Counted from the stretch's first letter, positions 4,904 to 63,285 are shown. The stretch is 64,000 nt of DNA from Escherichia coli (GCF_036507355.1 NZ_AP027877.1), one strand, 5' to 3'. The notes: generated by a model from the sequence alone, not told the origin. A program made the numbers and translations.

Positions 4904-6378
4904 CCCAGCATCGAGCCGGTTGCAATTAAATTACGGTGTAAGTCGAAGACGTGGCTAAGATCGTGGTGAATATGTCCGCCAGGCGCATTTTCCAGATAGC
5001 GATGCAGATAATCCCGATACATAGGATGTGCACAATTATCAATGATCGTGCGGGCGCGTTGAAGCGGGGAAAGACCGCGCAGATCGGCGATCCCTTGTTC
5101 GGTGATGATCACTTTGACGCTGTGTTCGCTGTGATCAACATGGCTGCACATTGGCACGACGGTTGAGATCTTGCCTTCTTTAGCAATCGATGGGGCCATA
5201 AAGATCGACAGATACGCGTTGCGTTCAAAATCACCGCTGCCGCCGATGCCGTTCATCAGATCGACCCCGGCTACGTGCGTTGAGTTGGCATGCCCGTAAA
5301 TATCAAACTCCAGGCCGACGTTCAGAGCGATGACGCCCAGACGACGGATGATTTCCGGGTTATTGGAAATCTCCTGCGGACGCAACACAATGCGGCTGGC
5401 AAAGTAATCCATATTGTCGTAAATCTTGCGCAGGGAATCGGCCGAGATTGTCAGGCTGGAGGCGCTGGCCCCGCTGATTTTGCCGGTTTCCAGTAAATGC
5501 ACCACCGATTCCTGTAGCACTTCCGAATACATCATAAACGGAGGAATTTCCGGGTTTTCCCCCAGACGCGCCATTACCGCATTATTGATATTGCCCACGC
5601 CACTTTGCAGCGGCAGAAATTCCGGCGGAATACGCCCATGCGCCATTTCCTGCAATAAGAACGTGACCACGTTATCGGCAATCTGCTGGCACATGGGATT
5701 TTGCTTATCCAGCATATTACCGGCGTCAGGCAAGTTGGTTTCCACGACGGCGACAATCTTTTTCGGATCGATTTGCACATAGCGGGTACCGACGCGATCC
5801 ATTGCATGGAAGATCGACACGCTATTGCGCCGTGGTGGCGCGCCAGGAATCACAATATCTGCCAGTTCTGCAACGCGCGGATCGTGATAGTGATTGAGTT
5901 CAATGATCACTTTCTTCGCTCGCAGCAGCCAGGTCGGCGCATTACCGATCCCGCTGGTTAACCAGACTCGACCATCTGGTGCCAGTGCCGATGCTTCAAT
6001 GACGGCAACATCAATGTCGCCGAAGAAACCGTAATTGACCATTTGCGCCACTTCGCTCAAATGCAGGTCAACGAAACTCACCGCGCCCTGATTGATCTTT
6101 TTACGTAAACCGGACGATGTTTGATATGGCGCACGCCAGGAAACAGCATCAGCGTCAGAAAGTACATCGTCAGCGGCGGCGCTGATTGACGCACCCGTCA
6201 GCAGGCGAATTTGATACGGCTTTTTAGCCTCATGCTGTTCGTTAGCTCTGCGGGCAATCGCGGTGGGTAGGGCTTTCGGTGAACCCGCTGGGGTAAAGCC
6301 GCTAAATGCCACCATGTCGTTATGCTGGATAATTTCTGCCGCTTCATCGGCGGTCATCCTTGTCCACTGAGTTTCCAT
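4900..6378 (-). CDS. scpC: Propionyl-CoA:succinate CoA transferase
   Basis: 492 aa, matches K-12 ScpC (YgfH). Confidence 0.95.
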   Translation of the reverse strand: METQWTRMTADEAAEIIQHNDMVAFSGFTPAGSPKALPTAIARRANEQHEAKKPYQIRLLTGASISAAADDVLSDADAVSWRAPYQTSSGLRKKINQGAVSFVDLHLSEVAQMVNYGFFGDIDVAVIEASALAPDGRVWLTSGIGNAPTWLLRAKKVIIELNHYHDPRVAELADIVIPGAPPRRNSVSIFHAMDRVGTRYVQIDPKKIVAVVETNLPDAGNMLDKQNPMCQQIADNVVTFLLQEMAHGRIPPEFLPLQSGVGNINNAVMARLGENPEIPPFMMYSEVLQESVVHLLETGKISGASASSLTISADSLRKIYDNMDYFASRIVLRPQEISNNPEIIRRLGVIALNVGLEFDIYGHANSTHVAGVDLMNGIGGSGDFERNAYLSIFMAPSIAKEGKISTVVPMCSHVDHSEHSVKVIITEQGIADLRGLSPLQRARTIIDNCAHPMYRDYLHRYLENAPGGHIHHDLSHVFDLHRNLIATGSMLG

Positions 6379-6401
6379 TTTTACTCCTTCGTTCGCAGGG
6401 A

Positions 6402-7187
6402 TTAATGACCAACGAAATTAGGTTTACGTTTTTCGAGGAAAGCGTTCATCCCTTCCTGGTAATCTTCGCTGTCATAAACCGCGCGGCGCATCCCCTGAAT
6501 ACGTTCAAATTCATCGGAGTTCATGGTGTGTGCTTCGCCCAGTACACGCAGCTCTTCTTTGATAACGGCAATGGCTAACGGCGCTTTCTCAGAGATGTGG
6601 TGCGCCATTTGTAAGGTGAAATCTTCCAGTTCTTCCACTTCCACAACATGGTTGAGGATGCCGACAGCCAGCGCGCGCTGGGCGGTGATTGGCGAAGCGG
6701 TAAAAATCAGCTCTTTGACAATGTGGAAGCCCGCGTCGCGGGTCAGGTTGTGAATGCCGACCAGGTTATACGGGACGCCGAGGTTTACAGGCGTCATTGA
6801 GAAGGTTGAGGTACTGGCGGCGATGATCAGATCGGAACTCATGATCATTTCAAATGCGCCACCCCAAACACTACCTTCCACCATCGAAATGATCGGTTTC
6901 GGGAATTTTTGGATCATGCGGGTGATTTGACGCAATGGATCATCATAGGAGAGCGGATCGCGACCGCCAGACGGCAGTTCGTGAATATCGTGACCTGCGG
7001 AGAAGACTTTGGATCCACTCGGCGCGCGCAAAATGATACAGCGAATTTCCGGCCGGTTGAGATCGCTTAACGCCTGCATAAGATCATCAATAAAGACTTT
7101 ACTTAAGGCATTAAGTTTTCGGCCATAGTTAAACTCAATGACCGCCACTTTGTTGATAGTGGCAACGTTCACATACTGATAAGACAT
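6402..7187 (-). CDS. scpB: Methylmalonyl-CoA decarboxylase (crotonase fold)
   Basis: 261 aa from the internal ATG (MSYQYVNVATINK..), matches K-12 ScpB. The N-terminal extension of the track ORF is rejected. Confidence 0.95.
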   Translation of the reverse strand: MSYQYVNVATINKVAVIEFNYGRKLNALSKVFIDDLMQALSDLNRPEIRCIILRAPSGSKVFSAGHDIHELPSGGRDPLSYDDPLRQITRMIQKFPKPIISMVEGSVWGGAFEMIMSSDLIIAASTSTFSMTPVNLGVPYNLVGIHNLTRDAGFHIVKELIFTASPITAQRALAVGILNHVVEVEELEDFTLQMAHHISEKAPLAIAVIKEELRVLGEAHTMNSDEFERIQGMRRAVYDSEDYQEGMNAFLEKRKPNFVGH

Positions 7188-38338: not shown

Positions 38339-38412
38339 GCGGGCGTAGTTCAATGGTAGAACGAGAGCTTCCCAAGCTCTATACGAGGGTTCGATTCCCT
38401 TCGCCCGCTCCA
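38339..38412 (+). tRNA. glyU: tRNA-Gly (anticodon CCC)
   Basis: gcgggcgtagttcaatggtagaacgagagcttCCCaagctctatacgagggttcgattcccttcgcccgctcca. 74 nt, cloverleaf-compatible, CCA encoded. Confidence 0.95.
38390..38412 (+). repeat. attL core (glyU 3' end)
   Basis: 23 bp identical to 42585-42607. Confidence 0.85.
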
Positions 38413-38546
38413 TGACCTTTCTTAAAGTACTCCAACCTACTGAATCCTAAGGGATACGGCTTTAAGCCTTCCGCTAGTTTTACTCACTGTAACCAACACT
38501 GTAACTAAATTTGTTGAAATAGTGAGCAGACTTAAGATCTCAGTAC

Positions 38547-40178
38547 ATGCTCAACTCAAAAACCTATCTTTATCAGCGCAATGGCGTCTTTTATATCCGC
38601 CTCAGGATGAAGTCCACAGATCGCCTGACCGTTTCACATCCTTCCCATAGCCGTTATAAAATAGCGTCAGTATCACTACGGACTAAGGATAGACGTACAG
38701 CTATGGCTTACTCACGGCAAATCAAGGCAGCACTTAGGGCAATCCATGCAGACAGACCCAACGCCTCCTATGAGGAAATGAGGGAACACCTGAGGGACAT
38801 CGCAGAGTGGGAGTTGTCTACAGGTCGTTCAGACCTCTTCGAGCCAGATATGAGAGATCTATACCGTGACCAGTATGGGGAAGTGGGAGAGAATCTTGTC
38901 CATGCTCTGGCAAGCGAGCCACTGACTATTGACCAGCATCGCTATATTAATGAGGCTCTTAATGTACTCAAGGCCTGCATGAAGCGCATTGAAGCGGGAG
39001 ATAGCCAGCCACTTATAGATTATATAGATGGATTTGATGCTGCTGCTGGGGCTAATGGCCAAGCCTCTGCAACTCTATCTGTTAGTGCTCCCCAAAAAAC
39101 AAGCATTACTGAAGGCAAACACTGCGTAACCGTTGCTTCTCTCTTTGAGCAGTACGAGCAGGAAAACGCCCAGAACTGGAAGCCAGCAACATTACGAGAA
39201 AACAAAGCTTCTCATGCTGCGTTAATCGAAGTTTTTGATTATCTGGGCCTCAATGCTGACGCCAATGTGTTAGCTCGTGCGGATATGCTTAGGGTTCGGG
39301 ATATCCTCCAGCAATTGCCGAAGAATCGTAAGCAGCGTTTCAAAGATGTTCCGTTGGTTGACCTGCTAGGTCGTGAGGATAAAACCGATTGTCTGGATAT
39401 TGTTACCATCAATAATAAATATCTCATTAAGATGGCGGCTGTTTTCAAGTGGGCCGTGCGTAATGACCTGATTAAAAAGAATATGACAGAAGGGCTAGAG
39501 CTTAAGGTTCCCCAGCGTAAAGCCTCTGAGGCGCGTAATGCTTTCTCTACGGAGCAGGTAGGACAACTACTGGCTGCCGCCCAAGTTTACTCACAGAGAC
39601 CTTCTGGTAAGCCGTATCATTATTATGTTACCGCCTTGGCTGCTATCACTGGGGCGAGACTCAATGAAATAGCCCAACTACAGGTCAAAGACGTCAGGAC
39701 CACTGAGGCGGGAACCGTTTATATTCATATCAATGAAGACGATAGTAGTCTACCCGGTAAGAGCATCAAGAACGCTCATAGTGACCGCTGTGTGCCTCTG
39801 GTCGATGGGGCCTATGGTTTTATATTGGCTGACTTTATGAGGTTGGTTGAGACCCGTAGAGGCGCTGATGGTGATGACGCTATGGTGTTCGATGGTCTTC
39901 GCCTCATGAAGAACGGTTACGGTGAGCAGGTGAGTAAATGGTTTAATCGGACGTTGTTGCCTAAAGTCCTCGCAGACCGTAGCGGCTTAGCGTTTCACTC
40001 GTTTAGACATACAGTTGCGACCCAGTTAAAACAACATGGGGTCGAGTTGGCGTATGCACAGGCGATCATGGGGCATAGTTCAGGGTCTATTACTTACGAC
40101 CGTTATGCTAAAGAGGTTGAGGTTGATAGACTGGTCAATGTGATGGCTGATGTTTATAAGGAGGTTGTGGCCCCTTAA
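38547..40178 (+). CDS. Tyrosine recombinase / integrase (large, 543 aa)
   Basis: The C-terminal catalytic signature is visible: ..GARLNEIAQL.. (R), HSFRHTVATQL (HxxR), GHSSGSITYDRY (H..Y). The N-terminus YLYQRNGVFYIRLR is typical of integrase N-terminal arm-binding domains. Confidence 0.85.
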   Translation: MLNSKTYLYQRNGVFYIRLRMKSTDRLTVSHPSHSRYKIASVSLRTKDRRTAMAYSRQIKAALRAIHADRPNASYEEMREHLRDIAEWELSTGRSDLFEPDMRDLYRDQYGEVGENLVHALASEPLTIDQHRYINEALNVLKACMKRIEAGDSQPLIDYIDGFDAAAGANGQASATLSVSAPQKTSITEGKHCVTVASLFEQYEQENAQNWKPATLRENKASHAALIEVFDYLGLNADANVLARADMLRVRDILQQLPKNRKQRFKDVPLVDLLGREDKTDCLDIVTINNKYLIKMAAVFKWAVRNDLIKKNMTEGLELKVPQRKASEARNAFSTEQVGQLLAAAQVYSQRPSGKPYHYYVTALAAITGARLNEIAQLQVKDVRTTEAGTVYIHINEDDSSLPGKSIKNAHSDRCVPLVDGAYGFILADFMRLVETRRGADGDDAMVFDGLRLMKNGYGEQVSKWFNRTLLPKVLADRSGLAFHSFRHTVATQLKQHGVELAYAQAIMGHSSGSITYDRYAKEVEVDRLVNVMADVYKEVVAP

Positions 40179-40180
40179 GG

Positions 40181-40219
40181 ATGACCATAGGCGATGACCA
40201 TAGGCGATGACCATAGGCG
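40181..40219 (+). repeat. Tandem 13-bp repeat atgaccataggcg x3 (plus a partial fourth)
   Basis: Three perfect head-to-tail copies begin 3 nt after the integrase stop. Each contains the reverse complement of the CTATGGTC motif that recurs at 40239-40291 and 40821-40848. Confidence 0.9.
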
Positions 40220-40330
40220 ATGACACTTGCTACTATTCCTATGGTCCCCTTTGTGGTCCTATGTGGTCCTGTGTGACCCTTTGTGTGGTCATGTTTTGAC
40301 TCATAGTTTTCACTACTTGTCAAGCATATT

Positions 40331-40353
40331 TAATACGACTCACTATAGGGAGA
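40331..40353 (+). promoter_or_regulatory. Phage T7 RNA polymerase class III promoter consensus, 23/23 match
   Basis: TAATACGACTCACTATAGGGAGA is read directly, with an AT-rich -22..-18 region (atatt). Predicted +1 is the G at 40348. It points toward the cargo genes at 41158 and 41845. The sequence match is certain. Its function in vivo is inference. Confidence 0.85.
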
Positions 40354-40585
40354 AGGGACACAAAAAGTTTTCTCTCTCTGTCTCTCTCTATGATGACACT
40401 TGCTACTACTTCAGGTAGCTTTAACTCTAACCGTAACTTATCGCATCCTTTCAGGGGCGGGATGACCAATTACAGACACCAAGCGTTCTACTTAAAATGA
40501 ATGCTTCCTGTGTGCTCTGGGTCAGTCGATAAGTGAATAGCCTTAGACATCATATTAATTATGGTCTCTAACCCCTACAGGGGCT

Positions 40586-40729
40586 TAACTTTAAGTATTA
40601 ACTTATAGTCTACTTAAAGACACAATTAAAGATTAACTTAAAGTATTAAATTATAGATTAATTAAAGACCAATTAAAGAGTAACTTTAAGTATTAACTTA
40701 TAGTCTACTTAAAGACACAATTAAAGATT
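40586..40729 (+). repeat. Three tandem ~47-bp AT-rich iteron-like repeats
   Basis: The 49-bp string taactttaagtattaacttatagtctacttaaagacacaattaaagatt is identical at 40586-40634 and 40681-40729. A degenerate copy (40635-40680) lies between them. All are rich in TTAAAG submotifs. Confidence 0.85.
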
Positions 40730-40922
40730 GACTCTAAGGGAATACCTTAAGAGGTGATGATATTCATAATAATCAATCACCAAACCTATAGGTCTCCTCA
40801 AGGCATTACCCAGAAGCTAACTGTATGGCCCTGTATGGTCCTGTACGCCATTCTTTAGGATGCCATGTAGTTTCGTATGGCCTGATGCCTAGCGTGGCTC
40901 AGAGACCCTCCCAGTAGTAAAT

Positions 40923-40945
40923 CAATACGACTTACTAATAGGAGA
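40923..40945 (+). promoter_or_regulatory. Degenerate T7-like promoter
   Basis: caatacgacttactaataggaga matches the T7 consensus at 18/23 ungapped, or better if a 1-nt insertion near -3 is allowed. It lies 213 nt upstream of the 41158 ORF. Confidence 0.35.
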
Positions 40946-41157
40946 CACACTCCGAACCACTCACCACGTGTCTCTCAAAGTTCCACCTCTCGCGCTTCAC
41001 CATACAGTAGCTCCGCACAGCTACGACACAATCATTCATTCAATCTCAAAGTCATTCTGTTTGCATCCTGTTGTCCTGCTGGTCTCCCTTCGCTTGGGGA
41101 CTTTGAGTGGGCCAGTAGGGGGCGGTTTAGTGTGCATATTTAAAAGGTAACCAAGCA

Positions 41158-41721
41158 ATGAACAATAAACATAAACATGCAGGTCATATTATCACTATTG
41201 AAGGCCACAGCTTTAAGTCTAATGAGTCTGGCATGTGGAATCTTACAGAAATATGGAAAATCCTCGGATTACCTAACAATAAGCTACCCTCTCAGTGGCG
41301 CGGCAAGGTAACAAAGAGGCTCACCGACATGCAAAAAATGCACGTCGAGAAGATTGGTATTGAAAGCATAACCTACGCAGACAAACAGGCTACCCTCAAG
41401 TATGCAGGATGGGTCTCTGAAGATTTCGAGGACATGGTCTATGCAGCCTTTGAGGCTATCCTTGAGATGCCTGAAGTTGCCACGGTCGTTGCTAATAAGA
41501 TGGTCGAACTTGGCTATCACGCTGAAGCTGAGCTATTGGAACGTCATAAGGACGACTATAGAGAAGCTATGCAGACCCTTAAAAAGATTGGTAAACGTGT
41601 TGACGGCAGGAAGCCTGAGCGCATCTACAAGGCCGTACTTAACGGTAATCTGACGAAATTTCAAGGGTTATCCATGATTTCTCGCAGCAGTGTCTGGTAC
41701 GCCCGAACAGTGAATCTATGA
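41158..41721 (+). CDS. KilA-N-like DNA-binding domain protein (tentative)
   Basis: 187 aa. The N-terminal pattern is ..ITIEGHSFKSNESGMWNLTEIWKILGL..P.QW.. followed by ..TYADKQATLKYAGWVSEDFEDMV.. This resembles the KilA-N/Bro-type fold as I remember it. The C-terminal half is helical and basic. Confidence 0.5.
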   Translation: MNNKHKHAGHIITIEGHSFKSNESGMWNLTEIWKILGLPNNKLPSQWRGKVTKRLTDMQKMHVEKIGIESITYADKQATLKYAGWVSEDFEDMVYAAFEAILEMPEVATVVANKMVELGYHAEAELLERHKDDYREAMQTLKKIGKRVDGRKPERIYKAVLNGNLTKFQGLSMISRSSVWYARTVNL

Positions 41722-41844
41722 TGGCTATCGATCACGATAGATGCCAGCGATCAATTTCAGGTTACCGATCGAAACAAACGATCAGCACGATGGTTGCAAT
41801 CGGATATCATATTGACACTTGTCTGACATCCTGAAGGTATCAAT

Positions 41845-42318
41845 ATGTTTGGGCTTTTTAAGAAAAAGGCAAAAGCGGAAAGGTGTTATGATGTAACACG
41901 CATTCAATACGAGCTGGTTGTAATGTCATCTAAGCTGATAAAAAAACAGACCGATATGTTCAAAGTAATAAAAGGGGAGCGAGAGGAGGCTTTAGGAGAC
42001 CCTTTATTATCAGCAGGGTATATAACGCCATGGGTCATTGGATATTGCACTGGTCTCCTGGATGCAGTGACTCAGACGGAGGCTAACAGGATGGCATTTA
42101 CATCAGAAATGCTTGGGCTTCTTTTTGCTGCAGTTTTCGGTGATGATAAGTCTCTTGAGGCCATGGGAACTTATATAGCCTGTAACGAAGCCTCCTCACC
42201 AGACCATGGATTTCATGTTACGTATGAGCTTTATATGTCTGGTCTAGCGAAAGCGTTTAATGAGGTATGTGAGGATAAACCTGCGATAGGACTTCTGAAC
42301 TATTTAATGCAGGATTGA
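41845..42318 (+). CDS. Hypothetical protein (157 aa), no recognisable family
   Basis: Intact ORF on the same strand as the T7 promoter and the 41158 ORF. It is preceded by a GATC-rich spacer. Confidence 0.55.
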   Translation: MFGLFKKKAKAERCYDVTRIQYELVVMSSKLIKKQTDMFKVIKGEREEALGDPLLSAGYITPWVIGYCTGLLDAVTQTEANRMAFTSEMLGLLFAAVFGDDKSLEAMGTYIACNEASSPDHGFHVTYELYMSGLAKAFNEVCEDKPAIGLLNYLMQD

Positions 42319-42584
42319 AAATTTCCCACAAAAATCTCAGTGCCTATCTAACAGTAATAACCCTGCAACATTCCCCCGTATACCTCCAGAAGTTATCCAG
42401 AAGCCGAAGTAGGTATCCTGTCATGTATTTGAATCATCAAAGTTGTTCGTTCTATTCCTCTTTAGGGAATATTACAGCCCTACAGCCTTGACCAGAGATC
42501 ACTTGATGTGTAACCATAACTGTAACCAAAAGGATTCATCATCCTTTAAGAAACAATTGGTTAGTGAGTGATTGTCTTCGATAC

Positions 42585-42607
42585 TTCGATTCCCTTCGCC
42601 CGCTCCA
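42585..42607 (+). repeat. attR of islet 1, and remnant att junction preceding island 2
   Basis: ttcgattcccttcgcccgctcca, identical to the last 23 nt of glyU. Confidence 0.85.
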
Positions 42608-42771: not shown

Positions 42772-43998
42772 ATGAAGCTGACTGCTCGTCAGGTTGAAAC
42801 TGCGAAACCCAAAGAGAAGCCCTACAAACTGGCCGATGGTGGTGGGCTTTACCTGCTGGTTAATCCCAACGGTAAAAGATACTGGCGTCTCAAATACCGT
42901 TCGTTAGGTAAAGAGAAGCTGCTCGCTATTGGCGTTTATCCCGATGTTTCTTTAGCTGAGGCCCGAAGTAAGCGTGAGGATGCTAAAAGAACATTAGCGG
43001 CTGGCAACGATCCCTCTCTTGAACGAAAAATTGAGAAACTTAGTCGTCAACAAGACGCTGAAAACTCGTTTGAGGCTATCACACGGGAGTGGTATCAGCG
43101 TCGCTATGACCGCTGGTCTGTCTCCTACCGCGAAGAAATGCTGAGAACCTTTGAGAAAGATGTATTTCCTTATATCGGTCACAGGCCAATCAAAGATATC
43201 AAGCCGATGGAGTTGCTTGCAGTTCTTTCAAAGATAGAAGCACGAGGGGCAACAGAGAAAGTCCGCAAGGTTCGTCAGCGTTGTGGAGAGGTCTGGAAGT
43301 ATGCCGTTGTGACTGGGAGGGCCGAGTACAATCCAGCACCTGATCTAGCCAGCGCCGTGAGTCCTCATGAGAAAGAGCACTATGCTTTTTTAACCCAGGA
43401 TGAATTGCCTGAGTTTCTTCGGACTCTGAACGCCTATGCCGGTAGTGTGCTTGTTAAGATTGCGATGCAATTGCTCATTTTAACAGGAGTAAGGCCAGGG
43501 GAGTTGAGGCAAGCGGAGTGGCAGGAGTTTGATTTTGAGAAAAAGGTTTGGAATGTACCAGCGGAACGTATGAAAATGCGCCGCCCTCATCTTGTTCCAT
43601 TATCAAGCCAGGCAATTGACCTGCTTAATCAACTTAAACCCATAACGGGAGCAGGAGCGTTATTATTCCCAGGACGTAATAATCCTAAGAAACCGATGAG
43701 CGATATGGCATTGACTGTGTTGGTCAGGCGTATCGGCTATGCCGGGCGCGTTACAGGGCATGGATTCCGCCACACGATGAGTACCATTTTGCATGAGCAG
43801 GGATTCAACTCGGCCTGGATTGAGTTACAGCTGGCTCACGTCGATAAGAACTCAATTCGTGGGACGTATAACCATGCTCAATATTTGGAAGGTCGGCGGG
43901 AGATGATGCAGTGGTATGGAGATTTCATCGGTCAAGCAGGCAAATCCGGATCATCGCTAGCTTATGCAGCTATTAGCTTGACTGCTGAATTAGAGTGA
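42772..43998 (+). CDS. P4-family tyrosine integrase
   Basis: 408 aa. The N-terminus MKLTARQVETAKPKEKPYKLADGGGLYLLVNPNGKRYWRLKYR is typical of the DUF4102 arm-binding domain. Catalytic residues: GVRPGELRQ (R), HGFRHTMST (HxxR), IRGTYNHAQY (Y). Confidence 0.9.
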   Translation: MKLTARQVETAKPKEKPYKLADGGGLYLLVNPNGKRYWRLKYRSLGKEKLLAIGVYPDVSLAEARSKREDAKRTLAAGNDPSLERKIEKLSRQQDAENSFEAITREWYQRRYDRWSVSYREEMLRTFEKDVFPYIGHRPIKDIKPMELLAVLSKIEARGATEKVRKVRQRCGEVWKYAVVTGRAEYNPAPDLASAVSPHEKEHYAFLTQDELPEFLRTLNAYAGSVLVKIAMQLLILTGVRPGELRQAEWQEFDFEKKVWNVPAERMKMRRPHLVPLSSQAIDLLNQLKPITGAGALLFPGRNNPKKPMSDMALTVLVRRIGYAGRVTGHGFRHTMSTILHEQGFNSAWIELQLAHVDKNSIRGTYNHAQYLEGRREMMQWYGDFIGQAGKSGSSLAYAAISLTAELE

Positions 43999-62055: not shown

Positions 62056-63285
62056 TTAGCTAAAGAACATTACCGATACGCACAGAATACCCACGATCAG
62101 CGTAATCAGATTTCCGATGGAACGCCAGGGTTTAAGCGCCGGGATGAGATACGTTGACAGCGTAGGCATGATGAAAAGTATCATGGCAATGAGTGGGCCG
62201 CTGATCGCATAAATCATCGAAATCGCGTTCGGGTTAATGCAACAAACAATGAAGGTGATCAGCGATACCAACATAATTGATAGTGCGCGGTTAAATGCAC
62301 GACTTTTCTTTACACCAACCTGCTGTAATGTTGTTTTGACGACCTCTGTGGCACCTTCAATAACGCCAAAGTACGTACCCAGGAATGATTTCGACATGGC
62401 AACTACTGCGACAATAATCCCGGAAATTGACAACCATGCTGGGGCGTTCGGCAGCATAGAAAGCGCCGATAAAATGGTGACCCCTTCTTCTTTAGCCGCT
62501 TCAATATACGAAGGTGGAATAGAAAGCAGGCAGCTAAAGACAAAGAACAGTACACTTATGCAGATGATGAGATAAGCGACTTTCATAATTTTTTTGCATT
62601 TATCCATAGCGTGTTCGCCATATTTTTCACGTCTGTCTATGGCAAACGTAGAAATAATGGGCGTATGGCTAAAGGCGAAAACCATCACGGGAATCGATAT
62701 CCATATCTGGTGAAGGGTATTCTGATTGAACTCTACCTGGGTTGTTAATAGATCAGGTTGCCAACTACCGACAAGGTAAATGGAAAGAAATAAGAAATAG
62801 GCAATCAATGGGAATACCAAAAATCCCATTACCCGAATAGTGGCATGACGTCCCATCAGAAAAATGAGATTCAGAATTAATACAACACCCAGACTCACCA
62901 ACATACGGATGCGAAGATCAATAACCATATGCTTTGCCAGCTGTTCCGTAAGTGAGTTGGTAATTGCCACTGCATATATCAACACGACGACAAAAAAGGC
63001 GATGAAGTACAGCGTGGTAATCAGATTACCTATCTTCTTGCCATAGTAGTGTGTTACTGCGCCCGTTATCCCTTCACCTGCTGATGTTTTCGATGAGAGG
63101 ATGAACTGACATAAGGCTTTATGTGGCCAGTATGTTAAAGGCCAGGCGACCAGAGCAGTAATAAACAGGACCACAGCCCCTGCCGAACCTAACTGAATAG
63201 GAAGGAAGAGCGTGCCTGCACCAACGGCTGTGCCGTAGAGCGCGAAACTCCACAGAGTTTCTTCTTTTGACCAAATATTAGACAT
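62056..63285 (-). CDS. yqeG: HAAAP-family (serine/threonine transporter-like) permease
   Basis: 409 aa, polytopic, matches K-12 YqeG. Confidence 0.95.
   Translation of the reverse strand: MSNIWSKEETLWSFALYGTAVGAGTLFLPIQLGSAGAVVLFITALVAWPLTYWPHKALCQFILSSKTSAGEGITGAVTHYYGKKIGNLITTLYFIAFFVVVLIYAVAITNSLTEQLAKHMVIDLRIRMLVSLGVVLILNLIFLMGRHATIRVMGFLVFPLIAYFLFLSIYLVGSWQPDLLTTQVEFNQNTLHQIWISIPVMVFAFSHTPIISTFAIDRREKYGEHAMDKCKKIMKVAYLIICISVLFFVFSCLLSIPPSYIEAAKEEGVTILSALSMLPNAPAWLSISGIIVAVVAMSKSFLGTYFGVIEGATEVVKTTLQQVGVKKSRAFNRALSIMLVSLITFIVCCINPNAISMIYAISGPLIAMILFIMPTLSTYLIPALKPWRSIGNLITLIVGILCVSVMFFS

Follow-up and report, generated by a model that had tools for sequence, protein, structure and literature searches.

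A family of integrative islets at tRNA-Gly genes of Enterobacterales with promoters matching those of T7-like phages

The Escherichia coli chromosome analysed here (GCF_036507355.1, NZ_AP027877.1) carries at the tRNA gene glyU an integrative islet of 4,195 bp, bounded by attachment (att) repeats, in which two small cargo genes lie downstream of a perfect phage T7 class III promoter. The islet was studied within a stretch of 64,000 nucleotides (64 kb), referred to below as the window, and in comparison with its relatives. It belongs to an apparently undescribed family of mobile islets found at tRNA-Gly genes of at least 14 enterobacterial genera, in which the promoters keep their position and strand and fall into classes that match real phages. 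From this organisation it is very probable that the islet is built to respond to the RNA polymerases (RNAPs) of T7-group phages. On balance, we read it as an interference or defence islet triggered by the phage polymerase, with probable amplification from a T7-type origin.

T7 is the textbook example of a strictly lytic phage, and its promoter is a workhorse of molecular biology. An earlier interpretation of the window, made from the sequence alone and called the sequence-only reading below, had described the islet as wired to a T7-type RNAP and considered a satellite, a decoy or abortive-infection module, or a decayed prophage. Most of the parts which it listed were confirmed at the positions given: the 23-bp direct repeats of the glyU 3′ end are perfect (chance expectation 0), the 543-aa tyrosine recombinase is intact, and the tandem 13-mers, the AT-rich iterons and a second, degenerate promoter are all present. 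Both promoters lie on the same strand as the two cargo genes and are directed at them. The proposed wiring to a T7-type RNAP gained support from the conservation of promoter position and strand across genera, from the phage-matched promoter classes and from the near-confinement of the T7 promoter to these islets in E. coli.

Phage promoters in the islet and its relatives

The promoter TAATACGACTCACTATAGGGAGA is the only match within three mismatches in the 64 kb, and none of 100 shuffled sequences contained one. A 32-nt probe around this T7 promoter matched 248 chromosomal places, all of them unannotated, in 211 of 5,426 complete E. coli genomes, and every place that was cross-checked is located a few hundred bases downstream of an islet integrase. 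On the chromosomes of natural E. coli isolates, a T7 promoter thus seems to mark essentially this islet family alone. The integrase occurs in 384 of the 5,426 genomes, always on the chromosome, and 35 genomes carry at least 80% of the islet. Independent complete genomes of strains from surface water, pigs and humans share it at 99.6% identity.

The degenerate second promoter CAATACGACTTACTAATAGGAGA is identical in three further E. coli loci (L002, L005 and L006) and is kept despite a C>T change at position -7; in L006 (8725-8765) it is preceded by three AATCAATACGA repeats. Sigma-70-like sites are fewer in the islet than in shuffled sequences (5 versus 8.8) and none stands before the cargo, and a scan of the islet found no intrinsic terminators. 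Judged by these searches, the cargo is without a convincing host promoter.

Relatives were fetched from E. coli (L002-L009), from one genome per bacterial species (L079-L097) and from metagenomes (L098-L120), and further loci in Yersinia and Pseudomonas were reached via homologues of the cargo proteins. The family, defined by relatives that share 64-87% identity with the integrase of the window, includes Escherichia/Shigella, Klebsiella, Citrobacter, Enterobacter, Buttiauxella, Shimwellia, Pectobacterium, Lonsdalea, Rouxiella, Edaphovirga, Serratia, Proteus, Morganella and Yersinia. The layout is constant with all genes on one strand: the integrase, sometimes followed by the gene of the defence protein RAZR, comes first; promoter sets 1 and 2 are next, separated by about 550 nt of non-coding DNA, and after them come a conserved leader, a gene for a DNA-binding protein of the KilA-N/Rha/Ant type (160-250 aa), one or two further protein genes and attR. 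What stays constant throughout the family is a core of integrase, att sites, promoter array, non-coding blocks and leader. A cousin in Pseudomonas fluorescens (L121, LR134318.1, 789075-801596) has a distant integrase of 499 aa and the same layout, and so the family probably extends beyond Enterobacterales. The promoter sequences at this locus are gh-1-like, a CACTGTAACC motif lies downstream of the promoter, and the KilA-N gene is preceded by a perfect 14-bp inverted repeat.

The sequence-only reading had asked for homologous islets with a conserved promoter, and these exist. In 30 loci, all 53 strict sites of the form N12-CACTATAGG(G/A) are on the coding strand and no further than 2.6 kb past the integrase; no such site occurs on the opposite strand of this region or on either strand of about 374 kb of flanking DNA. 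At least one strict site is present in 25 of the 30 loci; among the remaining five, four show variants of the core, for example CACTATAAG, CACTAAGGGG and CACATATAGGG. The fifth is a truncated Rouxiella contig (L079) in which no promoter was identified.

The specificity region of the promoters (-17 to -8) varies between islets, and its variants match real phage promoter classes. T7-type promoters, corresponding to the T7 group of phages, occur in E. coli and others, and an exact K11-type promoter (AATTAGGGCACACTATAGGGAGA; phage K11) stands beside a T7-type one in Klebsiella pneumoniae ATCC 13883 and E. coli M217. Islets of Citrobacter, Enterobacter, E. coli and Shigella have the class CTTAACTATCACTATAGGGAGA, which is present in 6-7 copies per genome in Kayfunavirus-like phages infecting Citrobacter, Enterobacter, Cronobacter, Shigella, E. 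coli and Salmonella. The Proteus islet carries ATTAATTAACCCACACTATAGGGAGACA, identical over 28 of 28 nt to ICP3/N4 promoters with 13-18 copies per phage genome. For the class TTAAAAACCCTCAC... of the P. fluorescens islet, 55 of 61 matching records are Pseudomonas T7-like phages, often with the match at annotated promoters, each match being weak alone. The occurrence of T7 and K11 specificities together in single islets shows that these promoters do not derive from one decayed phage and indicates selection for a response to several phages. Only degenerate promoters (TAATACGACTCAGTAATGGAGA, GTTACGACTCACTAAGGGGAGA) are seen in Yersinia enterocolitica (L123, 4680-4830), where the non-coding blocks and cargo are kept; the Yersinia islets are either decaying or matched to another polymerase specificity.

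The number of repeat units also differs between islets. The GATGACCATAGGC array comprises three copies in the window and about 14 in strain FT130 (L006, 7768-7930), and promoter-bearing units of about 120 bp exist in one to three tandem copies (L002, L006, L073, L076). This part of the islet evolves fast by gain and loss of units. Insertion sequence (IS) elements (IS1, IS3, IS66 and an unnamed transposase family) were repeatedly found in or beside the non-coding module or the cargo (L074, L075, L090, L007, L009), which means that some islet copies are inactivated.

Movement between genera is evident from pairs of islets that are far more alike than their surroundings. Between E. coli M217 and K. 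pneumoniae ATCC 13883, the islets have 94.6% identity over their entire 6.4 kb and the flanks are 72% identical or unalignable; between Buttiauxella and Shimwellia, islet identity is 92% and the flanks cannot be aligned. Among otherwise similar islets, cargo 1 has been swapped mosaically. The att design is common to all genera, with inverted CTTTAAGAA/TTCTTAAAG around a core of 17-23 bp and CACTGTAACC-type arm repeats at both ends. Complete islets fall into two tight length classes of 4,195-4,454 bp and 6,160-6,447 bp; islets lacking RAZR have a longer non-coding region, and the total length stays roughly constant. This constancy may reflect either a packaging or replication constraint or shared ancestry, and multiples of the islet length show no clean integer relation to the length of phage genomes. 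In four isolate-genome regions from IMG/VR (L066, L073, L075, L076), the insertion is not in glyU(CCC) but in a tRNA-Gly(TCC) gene that ends a Met-Arg-Thr-Gly tRNA cluster; the integrase therefore has more than one tRNA-Gly target.

Origin-like DNA and other conserved non-coding elements

AT-rich DNA follows the origin promoters of T7. Every T7 origin requires a T7 promoter, and replication of the phage starts at phi1.1A/phi1.1B (PMC8373140), while the T7 primase recognises 5′-(G/T)2GTC-3′ (PMC12839067). Both ingredients of such an origin, a promoter for a phage RNAP and a nearby AT-rich region with primase recognition sites, occur in the islet. Its non-coding DNA was aligned to 1-kb tiles of the T7 genome with all promoters masked, which gave a tile mean of 23.7 ± 5.1. 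The sole outliers were the tile 5501-6500 with the primary origin (score 50, z = 5.1) and the tile 1-1000 with phiOL (score 46, z = 4.4). In an initial run, in which only the two promoters of the islet were masked, the AT-rich repeats scored 50 on T7 positions 5953-6018, right after phi1.1B, and 49 on positions 408-498, right after phiOL. When the AT block was shuffled with its dinucleotides kept, the scores reached 22.6 ± 3.0 and 23.0 ± 2.9, and since none of 300 shuffles attained the observed scores, the likeness exceeds shared base composition. The Klebsiella islet also peaks at the T7 origin tile (z = 5.1), and the islet of the window peaks in the K11 genome at the region after gene 1, the equivalent of the T7 origin (z = 4.9).

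The 979 nt between integrase and cargo 1 contain 24 T7 primase pentamers, compared with 4.8 ± 2.0 in shuffled sequences, none of which reached 24 in 1,000 trials. This five-fold enrichment is the densest spot of the 64-kb window, and four distinct repeat families each contain a primase site. Together with the two origin tiles, it lends support to the earlier idea of an origin made up of a promoter plus AT-rich DNA. The resemblance to T7 origins comprises a T7 promoter, often tandem in relatives, followed by AT-rich DNA similar to the AT tracts of both origins, together with clustered primase sites. The arrangement differs in that the AT block begins about 240 nt downstream of the promoter instead of directly after it, is made of 47-bp repeats and is chromosomal. 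By this similarity, the AT-repeat block is a candidate origin, from which the phage replisome would probably copy the islet and raise its dosage.

A broader likeness to the ends of T7 genomes, also proposed in the sequence-only reading, held in part. It stands for the AT-rich repeats, which resemble the tracts after phiOL and phi1.1B. Compared with the T7 terminal repeat and concatemer junction, the TG-rich tract scored no better than shuffles, and the CT tract was marginal (7 of 300 shuffles reach its score) and is not conserved in relatives.

The 979-nt stretch contains no conserved open reading frames (ORFs). The earlier count of only two short ORFs proved too low, as there are several of 30-63 aa, none of them conserved in relatives. 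A 36-aa ORF over the 58-nt block (40390-40500) was considered as coding and rejected. Its counterpart is intact in L003 (27 aa with the same C-terminal peptide), and it is disrupted in L006 and L008, from which it follows that conservation acts on the nucleotide sequence and not on a peptide. The 58-nt block itself hardly varies between E. coli, Yersinia, Rouxiella and Edaphovirga and is more conserved than the integrase protein; its stem CATCC/GGATG is replaced by TCTCC/GGAGA in islets of the enterohaemorrhagic E. coli type. The GC hairpin CCCCTACAGGGG has a counterpart in the Pseudomonas islet (...GTACAGGGGCTAAGG).

The leader is kept ahead of unrelated cargo genes, and the context of the ribosome-binding site is maintained even when the gene is swapped. 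RNAalifold predicts a long irregular hairpin for it, with compensatory changes in only two pairs and a single-sequence z-score of -0.2. The best argument for a conserved hairpin is the Pseudomonas islet, where the perfect 14-bp inverted repeat, of unrelated sequence, is located at the same place. By analogy with T7 mRNAs, one may speculate that the hairpin is a processing site of the RNase III type. No Rfam families besides the tRNA were found.

Cargo genes, links to defence and competing explanations

For cargo 1, the Pfam KilA-N model scores 19 bits, below its cutoff, and the PHROG match and BFVD matches to KilA-N proteins agree with it, so that an N-terminal KilA-N fold is supported by profile and model evidence. 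Phage relatives of cargo 1 are limited to KilA-N domains of temperate phages with about 30% identity, PADLOC returned only a weak match to PD-T4-2_B (E = 1e-4), and a fold search against the PDB gave nothing below E = 1e-3. The position of cargo 1 is always held by a DNA-binding protein. Cargo 2 has no family match in Pfam, PADLOC or PHROGs and no phage homologue, and its homologues form 25 clusters. Across the family, the classes of cargo 2 show no detectable mutual relationship and those of cargo 1 are at most marginally related. The cargo of the long-type islets includes a DUF6971 protein and one of roughly 350 aa; for cargo 3 of these islets, there is no sequence match in Pfam or the PDB.

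A link to defence comes from the sister islets. In 14 of 27 integrase entries, RAZR/PD-T7-4 is encoded between the integrase and the promoters as a DUF4145 protein of 210-220 aa overlapping the stop codon of the integrase; the match to PD-T7-4 is full-length (PADLOC, E = 2e-101) and was seen in L003, L004, L008, L009 and others. A selection of E. coli DNA for resistance to T7 led to PD-T7-4, of which only the remark was made that it “often overlaps an integrase gene” (PMC9519451). Since renamed RAZR, it is a HEPN RNase that acts by abortive infection and responds to the portal rings of T7 and T3 (PMC13017515). In term searches of the two papers, neither phage promoters nor the non-coding module came up. 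RAZR is tied to the islet by its place in sister islets, where it overlaps the same integrase gene, and it acts against T7 and T3 (PMC13017515); it differs in its location upstream of the phage promoters and in sensing the portal protein instead of the polymerase. A second parallel is BstA, a KilA-N-domain protein and abortive-infection effector that localises to replicating phage DNA (PMC8585504). Like BstA, cargo 1 has an N-terminal KilA-N domain on a protein of a mobile element. In contrast, it has only 187 aa, shows no detected similarity beyond this domain (no match to a BstA model or C-terminus was seen) and would be expressed via a phage promoter. Because BstA acts at replicating phage DNA, a role of cargo 1 in DNA-targeted interference is plausible by analogy.

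From these observations we infer the following course of events. The integrase would maintain the islet in the tRNA-Gly gene, and the cargo, placed behind promoters for the single-subunit RNAPs of T7-like phages, would be silent in the healthy cell. Upon infection by a T7-group phage, the phage polymerase would recognise the exact promoter and transcribe the leader and both cargo genes at the time when the phage shuts down host transcription. In the T7/K11-type subclass, promoter, AT-rich block and primase clusters would in addition allow the phage replisome to copy the islet, raising its dosage. The likeliest outcome is interference with the phage, by a defence or parasitic module that uses the phage polymerase as its sensor. 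We favour interference since this design solves the problem of host-side expression after T7 has shut off host transcription. It is ranked above a packaged satellite because sister islets carry RAZR, and because neither a packaging signal nor an excised form nor a virome copy was found. Among known systems, engineered phage-triggered suicide cassettes, in which a phage-inducible promoter drives a lethal gene, are comparable in that only the invading phage activates the promoter ahead of a harmful gene; those are laboratory constructs, whereas the islets would be a natural counterpart, mobile and diversified.

Several observations weigh against this interpretation. Beyond the weak PD-T4-2_B hit, neither cargo protein matches a known defence family, and the model of cargo 2 is poor (pLDDT 48) and unusable for a fold search. 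RAZR, a protein with a zinc ribbon and the DUF4145 (HEPN) domain, is absent from the islet of the window, where 13-mers and TGGTC repeats take its place. Regarding the presumed amplification, many primase sites sit in repeats and are not independent, so that their enrichment stems partly from tandem repetition; it is about three-fold in most relatives and absent in some. The AT block is missing from islets with Kayfunavirus-like or other promoter classes, which show no outlier tile against T7, K11 or Citrobacter phage SH4, the last taken as a cognate phage of the Kayfunavirus-type islets. Finally, about 800 nt of highly conserved non-coding DNA exceed the needs of a promoter-plus-toxin design, which hints at functions in cis such as replication or packaging and would better fit a satellite.

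As a true satellite of T7-like phages, the islet would be transcribed and replicated by its helper, excise, be packaged in concatemers of about nine units into T7-type capsids and spread between strains and genera. We regard this as a plausible but less likely rival to interference; in that case, the islets would be the first satellites of strictly virulent T7-like phages, and their enterobacterial spread and the mixed promoter classes in one islet would be explained. The islet is an integrated element with its own integrase and att sites, intact in all genera, and without a match to structural genes in Pfam, PHROGs or PADLOC. Recent transfer between genera took place without conjugation genes aboard, and several helper-type promoter classes, sometimes mixed, are what an element shuttling between hosts should have. 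The T7-origin-like module, the large conserved non-coding region and the two tight length classes despite swapping of cargo point in the same direction. Moreover, all genes have one orientation, so that the phage polymerase would read through the whole of a circle or concatemer, the integrase included. A precedent is PICMI, a minimalist satellite of virulent phages that is packaged as concatemers (PMC10803314).

Known satellites and phage-inducible chromosomal islands (P4, PICI/SaPI, PLE, PICMI) are, like the islet, small, integrase-bearing islands at tRNA or other att sites without virion genes. They remain silent until a specific helper infects, are switched on by a helper-encoded factor, are often replicated during infection, in many cases hamper their helper and have exchangeable defence genes; the islet would behave likewise. 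Its switch would differ in being direct: promoters read by the helper polymerase are already in place, and neither an activator nor an antirepressor would have to come from the helper. A further difference is the lack of any recognised replication, terminase, capsid-size or excision gene, packaging signal, and excised or packaged form. The AlpA, Fis and primase/Prim-Pol domains, which together with an integrase form the PICMI core, are absent from the islet proteins. The P4-like set of alpha primase-helicase, delta, psu, sid and cos is likewise missing from the islet, which has two small ORFs besides its integrase; the P4-type integrase that starts at 42772 belongs to the neighbouring island.

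The searches for packaging and excision speak against a satellite. The non-coding DNA has no likeness to the right end, terminal repeat or concatemer junction of T7 or K11, and the class II pause signal ATCTGTT does not occur in the islet. Searches with Pfam, PHROGs and PADLOC recognised no terminase-like, capsid-related or excisionase gene, nor was a replication initiator or primase gene recognised in the islet. A pattern specific to the attP junction had 0 matches in IMG/VR and 0 in JGI metagenomes; a search of IMG/VR with the bare 16-mer gave mostly chance matches. The 23 metagenome copies are without exception integrated, with no circular one among them, the contigs of islet length being integrated copies broken at the tRNA gene. 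The integrase relatives in IMG/VR are only prophage predictions from isolate genomes, all integrated, and none comes from a virome. This absence from assembled data is weak evidence against a satellite. In addition, the integrase is located upstream of the phage promoters and would not be induced from the integrated state, and the RAZR of many relatives, by aborting infection when the T7 portal appears (PMC13017515), would destroy the supply of capsids. In the searchable literature, no description was found of satellites of T7-like phages (Autographiviridae) or of chromosomal arrays of phage-polymerase promoters.

It is improbable that the islet is a pure decoy or sponge whose promoters, primase sites and origin-like DNA titrate the phage RNAP and replisome, with the proteins being incidental. 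Such a role would suit the tandem perfect promoters, up to three at a spacing of about 120 bp in L073 and L076, the dense primase sites and the variable-copy 13-mer array. However, one to four promoters would have to compete with about 17 on each of hundreds of phage genomes, which needs strong amplification of the islet. The constant presence of a DNA-binding protein in the cargo-1 position also argues against a decoy, and the retention of leader and ribosome-binding-site context despite gene swaps points to selected expression of protein.

The proposal of a decayed left end of a temperate T7-like prophage was suggested by the T7 promoter and origin-like DNA beside an integrase, and temperate relatives of T7 such as LUZ100 are known (PMC10134795). 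It is effectively refuted. The islet contains no T7-like gene, and its cargo has no relative in T7-like phages. A blastn search against 50,697 phage records yielded nothing at E = 1e-5 and, at E = 10, only the promoter and short AT-rich matches. Both att ends and the compact architecture are intact across the genera, and two polymerase specificities in single islets are unlike any single phage. An assembly chimera or cloning-vector contamination, suggested by the identity of the promoter with the laboratory consensus, is refuted by the near-identical copies in independent genomes, the 211 genomes with the promoter at the same locus, the non-laboratory promoter classes at the same position in other genera and metagenomes, and the lack of flanking vector sequence.

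Features of the window and significance of the islet family

The features of the islet are listed in Table 1. The tRNA-Gly(CCC) gene is the sole tRNA in the window as detected by ARAGORN, and a search of the window for a further copy of the 23-bp att core within three mismatches found none. From their sequence and arrangement, TTCTTAAAG and CTTTAAGAA are candidate core sites of the integrase, and the CACTGTAAC(C/T)AA repeats are probably its arm-type sites.

Table 1. Features of the glyU islet with positions in the window
Feature	Position	Strand	Evidence and remarks
tRNA-Gly(CCC), glyU	38339-38412	+	3′ end is the integration target, attL core 38390-38412; ARAGORN, Rfam tRNA 71.6 bits, direct repeat
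Left core-type site TTCTTAAAG	38419-38427	+	Inverted partner of CTTTAAGAA at 42544-42552; kept beside att core in every genus examined
Two tandem CACTGTAAC(C/T)AA repeats	38485-38508	+	Third copy 42518-42529; repeat search
Tyrosine integrase, 543 aa	38547-40178	+	PF00589 E = 2e-18; phrog_1 integrase E = 3e-42
Three tandem 13-mers GATGACCATAGGC	40180-40224	.	Each with T7 primase site (TGGTC) on minus strand; repeat search
10-bp-spaced repeats with TGGTC on plus strand	40239-40290	+	GGTCC repeats 40239-40282; occupy RAZR position of relatives
Exact T7 class III consensus promoter TAATACGACTCACTATAGGGAGA	40331-40353	+	+1 at 40348; motif search, conserved in relatives
58-nt block TAACCGTAACTTATCGCATCCTTTCAGGGGCGGGATGACC...	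40428-40485	+	Small hairpin CATCC/GGATG; nearly invariant between genera
Second conserved non-coding block (...GGGTCAGTCGATAAGTGAATAGC)	40499-40541	+	Comparison of relatives
Conserved GC hairpin CCCCTACAGGGG	40572-40583	+	Opens AT-rich block; comparison of relatives
Three 47-48-bp AT-rich repeats, up to 84% A+T	40586-40738	.	Candidate origin for phage replisome; alignment to T7 with shuffle control
Conserved inverted repeat GGTGATGAT...ATCAATCACC	40753-40781	.	Also in L006, L008
Second cluster of 10-bp repeats (CTGTATGGCC / CTGTATGGTCC)	40821-40849	+	Repeat search
Degenerate T7-like promoter CAATACGACTTACTAATAGGAGA	40923-40945	+	18/23 positions match; position of promoter set 2 in relatives
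Conserved leader	41049-41128	+	Directly 5′ of cargo ribosome-binding site; invariant 16-mer CCTGCTGGTCTCCCTT (41075-41090); predicted long irregular hairpin
Cargo 1, 187 aa, KilA-N-type DNA-binding N-terminal domain, helical C-terminal half	41158-41721	+	phrog_129 E = 8e-10; model pLDDT 83
Cargo 2, 157 aa, all-helical	41845-42318	+	Enterobacterales only, without family match
Right-arm integrase sites (putative)	42518-42552	+	AACTGTAACCAA at 42518-42529, core-type CTTTAAGAA at 42544-42552; repeat search, att comparison
attR	42585-42607	+	Perfect 23-bp repeat of glyU 3′ end; direct-repeat search

A second island is inserted in tandem at the same glyU att core (42608 to about 54700). It has a P4-type integrase (42772-43998) and encodes a HEPN/RES-NTD-like protein, a DUF2326 protein, the arsenic resistance genes arsA/arsB and an IS3-family transposase; past it, the chromosome resumes near yqeG (62056-63285). 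The left flank of this island also adjoins the islet in Klebsiella (L080) and in two metagenome contigs (L105, L114). In strain SBF22, the islet is alone at glyU with core genes directly downstream; NCTC10973 is another strain that bears an islet.

The presence of exact T7 promoters in about 4% of complete E. coli genomes, within one family of mobile islets, is unexpected, as is that of K11, Kayfunavirus, ICP3 and gh-1 types elsewhere. What is new relative to known phage-inducible islands is the trigger logic. It suggests a general principle of sensing, in which the polymerase of the invader serves as trigger and works during the shut-down of host transcription. The anti-T7 gene RAZR is thereby placed within a larger mobile system that had not been recognised. 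An element of 4.2 kb together with T7 offers a tractable model, be it of a new defence logic or of the first Autographiviridae satellite. Practical effects of the islets are conceivable on T7-based expression in natural isolates and on how well T7-like therapeutic phages succeed, and their promoter arrays represent a natural catalogue of orthogonal polymerase-promoter pairs.

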